A DNA stretch of 50,386 bases, from positions 1 to 50,386 of the forward strand of contig JARFRD010000012.1 of the NCBI GenBank assembly GCA_029287435.1, written 5' to 3'. A program made the position numbers and the translations under genes. Numbering within the stretch: position 1 is the first letter of the stretch; each line of letters opens with the position of its first letter. Positions 38,939 to 43,463 of the stretch are shown here, piece after piece. The notes beneath the pieces were generated by a model, which was not told the DNA's origin, did not search any database, and saw only the letters and a program-made list of their open reading frames with translations. Source of the stretch: Gammaproteobacteria bacterium (GTDB lineage Bacteria; Pseudomonadota; Gammaproteobacteria; SZUA-229).

Positions 38939-41317
38939 CTACGATTTAATCTTTTTCTCGACTTCAAGTACTTCCTGTACCATCGTGTACACACTGTCAG
39001 GATTCAACGATAGTGAAGATATACCATTCTCAACCAGCCAGCGGGTTATCTCGGGAAAATCTGATGGTGCCTGTCCACAAATACCAACATACTTGCCTTG
39101 CTCGTGACAGGCATCAATTGCCATCTTCATCAGTATCTTCACAGATTCATCACGCTCATCAAAACCTTCGAGCAGCCCCGAGTCACGATCGACACCCAGT
39201 GTTAATTGCGTCAGGTCATTCGATCCGATAGAGAATCCGTCAAAGGATTTCAGAAAATCTTTTGCCAGCAATGCATTCGCAGGTACTTCACACATCAGGT
39301 AGATTTTCATACCGCCTTCCCTGCGACCCAGGCCATTTTTCGCCATCAGCTCGAGTACGCGCTTGCCTTCATCGACGGTTCTGACAAACGGCACCATGAT
39401 GTCAATATTTTTAAAACCGAGATGACGACGAACACGTGCAATCGCATCACATTCAAGCGCAAAGCATTCTTTGAACATATCTGATGGATAACGTGAAGCA
39501 CCACGTAAACCAAGCATCGGATTTTCTTCCTTGGGCTCGAACAGTTCACCACCAATCAACGATGCATACTCGTTCGACTTGAAGTCTGAGAGACGAACGA
39601 TTACCTGCCGCGGATAAAACGAAGCCGCAATCATACCGACACCTTCAGCCAGTCGTTTCACGTAATAACTGACAGGATCCGGGTAACCGCCAATCTCGGC
39701 ATCGATACGATGCTTCAGGTAATCATCCAGGTTGTCATAGTTCAGACATGCCCATGGATGTATACGAATCGTGTTACCGATAATAAATTCAAGGCGAGCC
39801 AGGCCAACACCATCCACCGGCAGGTTCGAGTGCTCGAATGCCATATCGGGATTGGCCAGGTTCAACATAATCCGCGTCCTGGGCTTCGCCAGCCTGGAAT
39901 AATCCAGGGTATCGCGTGTGTACGCCAGCTCACCGCGGTAAATATAACCGGTATCCCCTTCAGCACATGAAACCGTAACATGCTGATTGTTACTGATCTC
40001 TGTCGTTGCATTACTGCAGCCGACAATCGCAGGAATACCCAGTTCTCGAGCAATGATAGCGGCATGGCAGGTACGGCCACCTCGATTGGTAACAATAGCC
40101 GATGCGATCTTCATCACCGGCTCCCAGTCCGGGTCAGTCATATCGGTGACTAACACTTCACCGGCTTCCAGCTCATCCATGCGCGAGGCATCAGGAATAA
40201 TACGTGCTTTTCCTGTGGCGATGCGCTTGCCAATACTCTTGCCTACTGCAAGCACATCGCTGTGTTCCTTCAGAGAAAACACATCAACAGTGGTACCCAA
40301 CTCGCGTGCCTGAACTGTTTCCGGACGCGCCTGCAATATATACAGCTTACCGTCGTGACCATCACGCGCCCACTCGATATCCATTGGTTTGCCATAATGT
40401 TGCTCGATGGTGACAGCGGTGCGCGCTAGCTCCAGCACCTCATCATCATTAATGGAAAACCGGTTTCTGTCTTCGAGGTTGACATCGACGTTACGTGTAG
40501 AGAATCCGGTACTGGAGTCCTTACCGTAAATCATCTTGATCGCCTTGTTACCAAGCTGGCGGCGAATGATCGGCCGGTGATCACCATCAAGTGTATTTTT
40601 ATAGACGTAGAATTCATCAGGATTGACTGCACCCTGCACAACATTCTCACCAAGACCATAAGCCGAAGTAATTAACACTACGTCACGAAATCCGGTCTCA
40701 GTATCAAGCGTAAACATCACGCCAGACGACCCAATGTCGGAACGGATCATCTTTTGCACACCGATAGACAAGGCCACATCACGATGCGAGAAACCCTTGT
40801 CAACCCGGTATGAAATTGCACGATCTGTGTAGAGCGATGCAATCACGCGTTTGCAGGCGATCAACAGGTTCTCCAGGTTACGAATATTGAGCAGCGTTTC
40901 CTGTTGCCCTGCAAATGAGGCATCCGGTAGATCTTCGGCCGTGGCAGAACTTCGCACCGCAACATCCGGATTATCACCGTATTCTTCAGCCAGAATGTTA
41001 TAGCCTTCAGCTATCTCGGACGCGAACCTGGCTGGCAACTCGGCATGATGAATCCAGTTACGTATCTTTTTGCCGGTTGCAGCTAACGCTATGACATCAC
41101 TGGTATCCAGCTCGTCCAGCTCCTTGTTGATCTTTTTTGTGAGCTTGTTGTAATCGAGGAATTTGTGAAACGCTTCGGAGGTACTCGCATAACCATTCGG
41201 TATGCGTACACCACGTTCGGTCAACTGGGTATACATCTCGCCAAGCGAAGCGTTCTTACCCCCGACTTCGGGGACATCTGTCATTCTTATTTCTGAGAAA
41301 CTTTTTATATAGCGCAT
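38939..41317 (-). CDS. ppsA: Phosphoenolpyruvate synthase
   Basis: VGGKNASLGEM, AVRSSATAED, GGRTCHAAI (phospho-His) and SIGSNDLTQ. Confidence 0.99.
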   Translation of the reverse strand: MRYIKSFSEIRMTDVPEVGGKNASLGEMYTQLTERGVRIPNGYASTSEAFHKFLDYNKLTKKINKELDELDTSDVIALAATGKKIRNWIHHAELPARFASEIAEGYNILAEEYGDNPDVAVRSSATAEDLPDASFAGQQETLLNIRNLENLLIACKRVIASLYTDRAISYRVDKGFSHRDVALSIGVQKMIRSDIGSSGVMFTLDTETGFRDVVLITSAYGLGENVVQGAVNPDEFYVYKNTLDGDHRPIIRRQLGNKAIKMIYGKDSSTGFSTRNVDVNLEDRNRFSINDDEVLELARTAVTIEQHYGKPMDIEWARDGHDGKLYILQARPETVQARELGTTVDVFSLKEHSDVLAVGKSIGKRIATGKARIIPDASRMDELEAGEVLVTDMTDPDWEPVMKIASAIVTNRGGRTCHAAIIARELGIPAIVGCSNATTEISNNQHVTVSCAEGDTGYIYRGELAYTRDTLDYSRLAKPRTRIMLNLANPDMAFEHSNLPVDGVGLARLEFIIGNTIRIHPWACLNYDNLDDYLKHRIDAEIGGYPDPVSYYVKRLAEGVGMIAASFYPRQVIVRLSDFKSNEYASLIGGELFEPKEENPMLGLRGASRYPSDMFKECFALECDAIARVRRHLGFKNIDIMVPFVRTVDEGKRVLELMAKNGLGRREGGMKIYLMCEVPANALLAKDFLKSFDGFSIGSNDLTQLTLGVDRDSGLLEGFDERDESVKILMKMAIDACHEQGKYVGICGQAPSDFPEITRWLVENGISSLSLNPDSVYTMVQEVLEVEKKIKS

Positions 41318-41384: not shown

Positions 41385-41440
41385 CTGTAATAACTTTGTC
41401 ATAACTCGTGCATAGTTTCGTCATATTTCGCCCATAAAGT
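41385..41440 (+). promoter_or_regulatory. Pho-box-like array (11-bp period) with -10 element
   Basis: CTGTAAT aact TTGTCAT aact CGTGCAT agtt TCGTCAT, then N10 and TAAAGT; same spacing as the E. coli phoA promoter (TTGTCAC-N10-TATAGT). Confidence 0.7.
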
Positions 41441-41480
41441 TTGCTGTCTAAATACACAAATAAATCTCGAGGAATACATC

Positions 41481-42047
41481 ATGTTGAGCCGTTTTCTTAG
41501 ACTGACCATACTACTGAGCACCCTGATCTCGATCGCTGCCTGTGAAAACTATGGCGGATCCAGAAAGACTGATGACGCCGCTAATGAAGCCACGCCAGCC
41601 GCTGCTACACAGTTTTTTATCGTTGAAGAAGAGGGTCGCCTGTACAAATTCGATGATATGGCCACATTCAGATCTTTCCAGCAGGTCGGTGAGACCACTT
41701 TTCGCCTGACTCGTATAGGTGCTGGTCCGAAAGGTGAAACCATCGTTTACGGCTTGCCCAAGGCACAGAAGAAACTCGGCGCGGATGCCTCAGTCGTTAA
41801 AATCGATGAGGGCCGCCAGGCGATAGAAGGTGACTTCTATGGAGAACTGCATCGTCATGGCCGTATCTATGTATTCGACAAGTTCGAGGATATCGCGCCT
41901 GTACTGCAGCTGGGACACCCATCATATATGTTTACCCAAATCGGCTATGGTCCGAAAGGTGAAACGGTTGTTTTCGTATTGCGCAAGGAAAACAAGAAGA
42001 AACAACCAACTGCTTTGATCGAAGCTTTCGACAAGGTTAACAGTTAG
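41481..42047 (+). CDS. Uncharacterised lipoprotein with a two-fold internal repeat
   Basis: Lipobox IAAC (Cys21), GAGG RBS; two gapless repeats 75 aa apart with GR[LI]YxFD...IGxGPKGET. Confidence 0.85.
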   Translation: MLSRFLRLTILLSTLISIAACENYGGSRKTDDAANEATPAAATQFFIVEEEGRLYKFDDMATFRSFQQVGETTFRLTRIGAGPKGETIVYGLPKAQKKLGADASVVKIDEGRQAIEGDFYGELHRHGRIYVFDKFEDIAPVLQLGHPSYMFTQIGYGPKGETVVFVLRKENKKKQPTALIEAFDKVNS

Positions 42048-42060
42048 CAGGGAAAGACAA

Positions 42061-42086
42061 GCCACAGGGACGTGGCCTTTTTATTT
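42061..42086 (+). terminator. Intrinsic terminator after the lipoprotein gene
   Basis: GCCAC-agggac-GTGGC hairpin followed by CTTTTTATTT. Confidence 0.65.
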
Positions 42087-42114
42087 AAAAACACTCTTAA
42101 CGCAAAGACGCTAA

Positions 42115-42191
42115 GTCATTGCGAGCGAAGCGAAGCAATCTCTTACAAGACTTGACAAGATTGCCGCGTCGCTGTCGCTCCTCGCAATGAC
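42115..42191. mobile_element. 77-bp GTCATTGCGAG...CTCGCAATGAC palindromic element
   Basis: Perfect 11-bp terminal inverted repeat and inner GCAATCT/AGATTGC pair; lies between degenerate arms related to the 19173 element. Confidence 0.75.
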
Positions 42192-42245
42192 GATAAATGA
42201 TTTATACAAATAAATACTCAGCGTTCTCAGCGCCTATACGGCCAA

Positions 42246-43463
42246 TTATTTCTTACCCGCTGCAATGCGCAAGCGAAGTGCATTCAGCTTGATAAAACCT
42301 TCCGCATCTTTCTGATCGTAAGCACCCGCATCATCTTCAAAGGTTGCGATGTCTTCGTCGAACAGTGAGTTGTCTGAACGGCGGCCCACAACTTCAACGT
42401 TACCCTTGTACAGTTTCAGGCGTACATCACCGTTAACATTAACCTGTGATGCGTCAATCATCTGCTGCATCATTTCACGCTCCGGGCTCCACCAGTAGCC
42501 GTTATAAACCAGCTTGGCATAGCGTGGCATCAGCTCATCCTTTAAATGGGCAACTTCACGATCGAGCGTCAAAGACTCAATCGCACGGTGCGCTTTCAGC
42601 ATGATGGTACCGCCGGGTGTTTCGTAGCAGCCGCGTGACTTCATGCCAACATAACGGTTCTCAACGATATCATCACGACCAATACCGTTGTCACCCGCGA
42701 GCTGGTTCAGTTTCGTCAGTACCTGTGCCGGCGTCATGTCTTCACCATCGATAGAGACAATGTCGCCTTTACGGTAACCCAGTTCTATGTAAGTCGGTGT
42801 GTCCGGTGCTTTCTCCGGTGACACTGTCCAGCGCCACATCTCTTCTTCCGGTTCAGCCCATGGATCTTCGAGCACGCCACCTTCGTAGGAAATATGCAGC
42901 AGGTTGGCATCCATCGAGTACGGTGATTTCTTACCCTTGTTGAAATCGACAGGAATATTATGCTGCTCGGCATAAGCCATCAGCTTCTCGCGTGACAGCA
43001 AATCCCATTCACGCCAGGGCGCAATGATGTGGACATCGGGTTTTAACGCATAGGCGCCCAGTTCGAAACGCACCTGGTCATTACCTTTTCCGGTTGCGCC
43101 ATGCGAGATTGCATCAGCACCGGTTTCATTCGCAATTTCAACCAGACGCTTGGCAATCAGCGGACGTGCTATAGATGTACCAAGCAGGTACTCGCCCTCG
43201 TAGATCGTGTTGGCACGAAACATCGGATAAACGTAATCACGTACGAACTCTTCGCGCAGATCTTCAATGTAGATTTCCTTTACACCCAGCGCTTCGGCCT
43301 TGGCACGTGCTGGCTCAACTTCCTCACCCTGCCCGATATCTGCAGTGAACGTCACTATTTCGCAACCGTAGGTATCTTCCAGCCATTTCAGAATAACTGA
43401 TGTATCCAGACCACCCGAGTAGGCAAGTACCGCTTTATTGATGGAAGATTTATTCGCAGACAT
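42246..43463 (-). CDS. argG: Argininosuccinate synthase
   Basis: [34 protein letters not shown] and [11 protein letters not shown]. Confidence 0.99.

Follow-up and report, generated by a model that had tools for sequence, protein, structure and literature searches.

A two-module lipoprotein preceded by Pho boxes as a probable accessory component of the long-form Pst phosphate system

A small lipoprotein encoded in a 50,386-nt window of DNA from a gammaproteobacterium (the window being the whole stretch analysed; the protein is hereafter called X) is probably an extra, structurally undescribed periplasmic component of the Pst/Pho system. PstSCAB with PhoBR and PhoU is among the best-studied bacterial nutrient systems and is normally depicted with four transport proteins plus PhoU. 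Three links tie the X family to this system: its genes share a conserved Pho box, many uncultured lineages have them inside pst operons, and they co-occur strictly with a long form of the permease PstC. On balance we favour the view that X is a periplasm-facing lipoprotein under PhoB-dependent control which acts as an accessory component of the long-form PstSCAB uptake system.

The coding sequence of X occupies positions 41481-42047 (+) including the stop codon and encodes 188 residues; a ribosome-binding site, GAGGAA (41469-41474, +), stands about 6-7 nt upstream of the ATG. The N-terminus, MLSRFLR-LTILLSTLIS-IAAC (41481-41543, +), has the n-region with two Arg residues and the hydrophobic core of a bacterial lipoprotein signal peptide, and its lipobox, I-A-A-C, fits the pattern [LVI][ASTVI][GAS]C; Cys21, predicted to be the lipidated first residue of the mature protein, is nearly invariant in an alignment of 40 homologues. 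It is followed by a flexible, low-complexity tether of residues 22-42 (41544-41606, +), for which the structural model gives a pLDDT of 46-58 and whose length and sequence vary among homologues. The remainder is made up of two repeats delimited by half-against-half BLASTP, alignment and modelling, namely residues 43-117 (41607-41831, +) and residues 118-188 (41832-42044, +). With a pI of about 6.4-7.8, the mature protein as a whole is not strongly basic. X is flanked by the divergent ppsA (38939-41317, -) and the convergent argG (42246-43463, -), and since a hairpin resembling an intrinsic terminator, GCCACAGGGACGTGGC, followed by the T-run CTTTTTATTT (42061-42086, +; terminator scan), comes directly after it, X forms a single-gene unit. 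A second terminator-like hairpin (42096-42115, -) lies after argG, within the palindrome-rich spacer between X and argG (42097-42245).

The two halves of X share 23 identities in 63 positions (37%) with no gap (BLASTP, E=1e-13); residue 52 is the first of GRLYKF and residue 127 the first of GRIYVF. The original prediction of a lipoprotein with two gapless repeats at an offset of 75 is borne out by the reading frame, the lipobox at Cys21 and this self-alignment. The prediction had also noted 17 identical nucleotides in the repeats, and by exact string count the string GGTCCGAAAGGTGAAAC, which encodes GPKGET, indeed occurs exactly twice in the 50-kb window (41724-41740 and 41949-41965, both +), with none expected in shuffled sequence. 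Since the repeats are otherwise diverged at the DNA level, the duplication is old and does not represent a recent tandem copy. Repeat 1 runs in the order beta-hairpin with a GR turn, helix, GE, beta-hairpin with the IGAGPKGET loop, KK-rich segment and short helix; repeat 2 has the same topology, with an IGYGPKGET loop, an NKKKQP segment and a C-terminal helix. Across the 40 aligned homologues, both repeats keep the motif I-G-x-G-P-x-G-E-T with little or no variation, so that it is conserved well beyond the window protein. Residues invariant in this alignment are G52, R53, F57, G70, E71, R75, I79, G80, G82, P83, G85 and T87 in repeat 1 and R128, I129, Y130, G145, G157, P158, G160, E161 and T162 in repeat 2; two Lys pairs (K97-K98 and K172-K173) are conserved as well. 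X is established as a real, conserved, secreted and lipid-anchored two-module protein.

AlphaFold2, run on the alignment of 40 sequences, gave a model of X with a mean pLDDT of 88, reaching 95-98 in the core blocks and being low only in the signal peptide and residues 22-42. The model consists of two equivalent beta-beta-alpha-beta-beta(+alpha) units packed as one confident body, each repeat forming a hairpin, a helix and a second hairpin followed by a short helix, which agrees with the pseudo-symmetric beta-rich module that had been anticipated from the sequence. When repeat 1 was modelled alone, its secondary structure was unchanged and its pLDDT was 94.9. The earlier remark that no family was recognised also stands: nothing in Pfam-A or NCBIfam scores above threshold, and searches of the PDB with the protein and with the 40-sequence profile found no sequence relative. 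Foldseek returned no neighbour with E<0.1 when the two-repeat model was compared with the PDB and BFVD and the single-repeat model with the PDB; the best PDB E values for the two models were 0.76 and 1.6, with TM scores of at most 0.33, and as the method has little power on small domains this result shows that no relative can be recognised but does not prove the fold to be new.

Several apparent kinships were considered and set aside. Sub-threshold Pfam and NCBIfam matches of X and seven multi-repeat relatives, to PilX, acylphosphatase and, through the DGRLWVF hairpin, propeller-type families, were regarded as noise. The paired beta-alpha-beta modules of VOC/glyoxalase proteins and the beta-grasp units of the protein G/L B1 type are, like X, small mixed alpha/beta modules in tandem, and a few of them are among the weak Foldseek matches; yet all of these matches have E>=0.76, probability <=0.08, TM <=0.33 and a large rmsd, the best VOC matches falling at E 0.76-3.5 with probability <=0.08 and TM <=0.30, so that the resemblance is topological at most and kinship is unsupported. 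The glycine-rich motif is not a Walker A P-loop either: a P-loop has G-x(4)-G-K-[ST] in a strand-loop-helix, whereas the G-x-G-P-K-G-E-T of X lies in the beta-hairpin loop that joins strands 3 and 4. Membership in the PstS/PBP_like_2 group was rejected because X has no such Pfam or NCBIfam match and its predicted fold differs from the two-lobed binding-protein fold.

Upstream of X, four heptamers, CTGTAAT, TTGTCAT, CGTGCAT and TCGTCAT, form an array with an exact 11-bp period (41385-41428, +; heptamer starts at 41385, 41396, 41407 and 41418) and AT-rich 4-nt spacers, followed by a weak fifth heptamer, CGCCCAT (41429-41435, +). A Pho box consists of at least two 7-bp direct repeats near CTGTCAT with a period of 11 bp and AT-rich spacers, the consensus being CTGTCAT-N4-CTGTCAY. 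PhoB-dependent promoters have no -35 hexamer, the Pho boxes standing in its place, and their -10 hexamer lies about 10-12 nt downstream of the last box. A candidate -10 hexamer, TAAAGT (41435-41440, +), is found 10 nt past the fourth heptamer and 40 nt before the ATG of X, oriented toward X, and a consensus scan detected no ordinary sigma-70 -35/-10 pair on the plus strand of this region.

When every position of the source genome, a 2.62-Mb draft that is 77% complete, was scored for a four-heptamer array, the one before X ranked first, with a score of 21.25 against a mean of 8.0 and a standard deviation of 2.16 over 5.2 million positions. The same genome encodes a PhoB orthologue (310 bits; curated cut-off 296), whose gene is part of the cluster pstC-pstA-pstB-phoU-phoB-phoR. 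Its pstS gene, on another contig (C147), is preceded at about positions 313-356 by an array of the same architecture, TTGTAAC, ATGTAAC, CATACAT and TATTCAT separated by ATAA, ATTT and ATTT. This pstS array directly follows the 3′ end of a histidine-kinase gene, which seems to continue the phoR of contig C97.

Pho boxes also recur before the orthologues of X. Among 79 orthologue loci with enough upstream sequence, drawn from several gammaproteobacterial orders, 81% carry a Pho-box score of at least 11.5 at -150 to -25, as compared with 0.58% of 13,733 background windows. In a control restricted to intergenic regions the figures were 72% and 9.7%, and the high-scoring background regions belonged mostly to neighbouring pstS, PAP2 and CHAD genes. 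Many of the orthologue sites are perfect, for example CTGTCATAAATCTGTCAT, and many match CTGTCAT-N4-CTGTCAT exactly. The scoring scheme had been relaxed to allow A at position 5 after the window and pstS sites had been seen and is therefore mildly circular, which is immaterial given the size of the effect. One could suppose that the heptamers are a product of chance or serve the divergent ppsA, X being an ordinary envelope lipoprotein unrelated to phosphate, since they lie within the 163-bp intergenic region that ppsA and X share and two of the four deviate from consensus. This is very improbable, as the array is the best in the genome, has an orientation and spacing that fit X, and is matched by boxes before orthologues with unrelated neighbours, and as relatives of X are embedded in pst operons. 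As far as sequence can tell, it is strongly supported that X belongs to the Pho regulon, and the family reads as one that is switched on under phosphate starvation.

The family comprises 218 homologues at E<=1e-3 in a set of 5.8 billion proteins, all annotated as "hypothetical" or "lipoprotein" and those with a named source coming from Thiomicrorhabdus and Thiomicrospira; there are 206 representatives at 50% identity, and a scan of one genome per species yielded 172 relatives. Modules are 60-70 residues long, and the family falls into three sequence classes: the gamma class, to which the window protein belongs (GETxYRLTRIG), the "HLPYT" class and the "GEPAK" class (DGRLWVF...GEPAKRVT..G.GP.G.T). 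The presence of two repeats describes the window protein correctly but is not a property of the family, since a repeat HMM counted 1 to 6 or more modules in 150 representatives, with a mode of 2. A lipobox-like start was found in 95 of these 150, and some orthologues from Methylococcales have a plain signal peptide with no lipobox. No known domain is fused to the modules, including in the eight relatives with long non-repeat regions.

The decisive evidence for the proposed phosphate link is the operon context of the relatives. A GEPAK-class protein with six modules (P0141) is encoded in the order pstC-pstA-pstB-X-phoB-phoR-phoU-OprO/P porin, while pstB-X-phoU is found both for another relative with six modules by the repeat HMM (P0228) and for an HLPYT-class protein with four (P0131); a further relative follows an ABC ATPase gene. 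In metagenomes scanned with a repeat-only query (a repeat alignment of 6 rows), X touches pst genes in 26 of 45 loci, many of the other 19 being contigs shorter than 2 kb. The usual order there is pstC-pstA-pstB-X followed by phoU or phoB, and pstS-X-pstC, X-pstS-pstC and pstA-X-pstB also occur. The permease genes beside X in these loci are of the long form (stop-to-stop frames of about 600-900 codons), and the permeases are 45-68% identical to the long PstC and the PstA of the source genome. In one complete gammaproteobacterial genome the order pstS-X-pstC-pstA-pstB-phoU runs along a single strand, and in Methylococcales pstS and X are divergent. In the gamma class X lies within 6 kb of pst genes in only 7 of 80 loci, the window X not being beside pst, so that for this class the phosphate link rests on the Pho box and co-occurrence. 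Gene order strongly supports a physical link to pst, phoU or phoB genes in all three sequence classes.

Other neighbourhoods of X raise the question of whether it belongs instead to a phosphate-starvation module for envelope or lipid remodelling. There X would support a PAP2 phosphatase and a glycosyltransferase, together with an outer-membrane phospholipase A, in replacing phospholipids; one conceivable task would be to handle the head groups of lipids in the periplasm. In loci of the Marinomonas type, PldA, X, PAP2 and glycosyltransferase genes follow one another on one strand, and in Methylococcales X is next to a glycosyltransferase-PAP2 pair; together these make up about 19 of 80 loci in two orders. 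Still, the PAP2-glycosyltransferase pairs have Pho boxes of their own and are convergent with X in Methylococcales, so that they may stand beside X simply because genes of the Pho regulon cluster; most lineages, including that of the window, lack such a neighbourhood, and the other two sequence classes are found inside pst operons. A role in lipid remodelling is accordingly improbable for X.

These neighbourhoods have some features of their own. The pair of PAP2 phosphatase and Glyco_trans_1_3 genes with its own Pho box was seen beside X in 12 Marinomonas-type and seven Methylococcales loci, and looks like a phosphate-starvation lipid-remodelling cluster distinct from the described PlcP-Agt pair. 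In Marinomonas, a gene for outer-membrane phospholipase A1 is located just upstream of X. In seven Methylococcales loci, X is preceded on the same strand by genes for a CHAD-domain protein of about 510 residues and a ParA-like ATPase, the CHAD gene having its own Pho box; CHAD is a domain associated with polyphosphate granules.

The third link is to the transporter itself. Ahead of its permease core, long-form PstC carries a large extra domain, about 370 residues in length, whose predicted location is the periplasm. With the first 385 residues of the PstC reading frame at positions 183-2240 of contig C97 in the source genome as query, that is, the part ahead of the canonical permease core, long-form PstC was found in 14 of 14 genomes that have X and in 11 of 29 genomes that lack it (Fisher p=5.7e-5). 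The segment of these 385 residues that follows the N-terminal membrane helix has faint beta-propeller-like matches. The 11 genomes with long-form PstC and no X imply that the transporter does not need X. None of ten other species of the genus has X, and the four that were tested also lack long-form PstC; the presence of both in the source genome and their absence from the tested congeners suggest a joint gain or loss. A functional tie between X and the long-form Pst transporter is strongly supported by these co-occurrence patterns. The phosphate connection first proposed for the boxes upstream of X has been upheld by the genome-best array, the boxes at orthologue loci, the relatives in pst operons and this co-occurrence. 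As a separate observation, the long pstC of the source genome contains an in-frame TAG (contig C97, positions 167-169), between LLIFFYFL and VVIPMFES, which separates the N-terminal membrane helix from the large domain. It may reflect a pseudogene, read-through or an error of the draft assembly, and the partner of X may be defective in this genome.

How X would act beside this transporter can be outlined from its parts. A lipid anchor, a flexible tether of about 20 residues and a compact body of two beta-beta-alpha-beta-beta modules would make up the mature protein. When phosphate becomes scarce, X would be transcribed from a PhoB-dependent promoter in which the four Pho-box heptamers replace the -35 hexamer, and would serve in the periplasm as an accessory component beside long-form PstSCAB. 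In the preferred version, which agrees with the original guess that X itself could bind phosphate or a phospho-ligand, one of the two conserved ends of each module would bind phosphate or a different small phospho-anion, and the tethered, often multivalent protein would hold phosphate or pass it to PstS or PstC near the membrane; we give this version a chance of about one in three. By topological reasoning, from how long the strands and helices are and in what order they come, the GR turn, the GE-x-x-x-R segment and the Lys pair that follows strand 4 should be together at one end of the module, and the glycine-rich G-x-G-P-x-G-E-T loop should be at the other, together with the N-terminus of the helix. 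The conserved basic end of the modelled module suits a small-anion site. In the GEPAK class, which has K and R directly after GE in place of the Lys pair, the basic cluster would be kept by different residues.

That the modules dock to PstS, or to PstC through its periplasmic domain, and bind no phosphate is almost as likely as this version. In the fuller form of this reading, X would have no contact with phosphate and would act as an adaptor between proteins: at the membrane it would tether or organise PstS, or else the large periplasmic domain found in long-form PstC, the number of modules setting the number of partners. The strict co-occurrence with the long-form PstC domain is what such an adaptor would lead one to expect, as are the direct adjacency of X to long-form pstB or pstC in operons and the constant presence of PstS, for which X is no substitute; moreover, the most conserved residues are turn glycines and hydrophobics, which may be purely structural. 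Against these points, most gamma-class genes for X stand apart from pst genes, and the conserved Arg, Lys and Thr at both ends of the module would suit an anion site as well. The adaptor is entertained as a tentative alternative. To return to phosphate binding, its most far-reaching form takes the module as a new phosphate-binding or relay fold and X as a fifth, periplasmic component of long-form Pst that would feed PstS or the PstC domain, a proposal that is for the present rather unlikely.

Comparison with known proteins of the system places X among its additions. If X binds Pi, PstS is its natural functional analogue: it is periplasmic, under Pho-box control, encoded in or beside pst operons and itself a lipoprotein in some bacteria. 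There is no sequence similarity between the two, however, and the predicted tandem beta-beta-alpha-beta-beta modules of 60-70 residues differ from the two-lobed alpha/beta structure of PstS; PstS is always present alongside X, and hence X is an addition and not a substitute. With PhoU and other accessory pst products X shares the operon slot after pstB, next to phoU or phoB, and the position outside the core transport subunits. PhoU, in contrast, is cytoplasmic and helical and is not homologous to X, which is extracytoplasmic with a signal peptide and lipobox. PsiF of Escherichia coli is a small phosphate-starvation-inducible periplasmic protein of unknown function with two internal repeats (Pfam PsiF_repeat). 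X resembles it as a small secreted Pho-regulon protein with two internal repeats, but motifs, repeat length and predicted structure are unrelated, and a Pfam scan gave no PsiF_repeat match to X even at E<=10.

If X captures or relays phosphate, the purpose of the large periplasmic domain of the little-studied long-form PstC would be explained, and the known repertoire would gain a new module for docking or for binding small anions. It could also serve as a marker gene of phosphate stress in marine sulfur-oxidising, methanotrophic and heterotrophic Gammaproteobacteria. Accumulation of phosphate in the periplasm as a "buffer" has been reported in marine bacteria, in a study whose abstract names no protein basis for it (PMC7250820); were the modules a phosphate-binding fold, X would be a molecular candidate for this buffer. 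The family appears to be undescribed: a full-text search of the literature found neither a description of it nor published expression data for its members, which is absence from the texts searched and not proof of absence, and papers on phosphate limitation in Desulfovibrio and Pseudomonas deal with other proteins.

The distribution of X is sparse and patchy, with X in 15 of 400 genomes of the class, four of 41 relatives and none of the 10 species of its own genus. A tblastn search of plasmid and phage collections gave no match, and a paralogue search with the repeat HMM showed X to be single-copy in its own genome. Four congeners show no synteny with the window downstream of argG; with sister species that lack X and differ in this region, no simple "empty site" is demonstrable. 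Carriers in the per-species scan include Thiomicrorhabdus, Hydrogenovibrio, Methylococcales, Marinomonas, Motiliproteus, Oceanospirillum, Psychromonas, Oleiphilaceae, Endozoicomonas and others. In some Thiomicrorhabdus and Thiotrichales, a four-module version of 355-381 residues, seen at four loci, corresponds to a tandem duplication of the whole two-module gamma-class protein.
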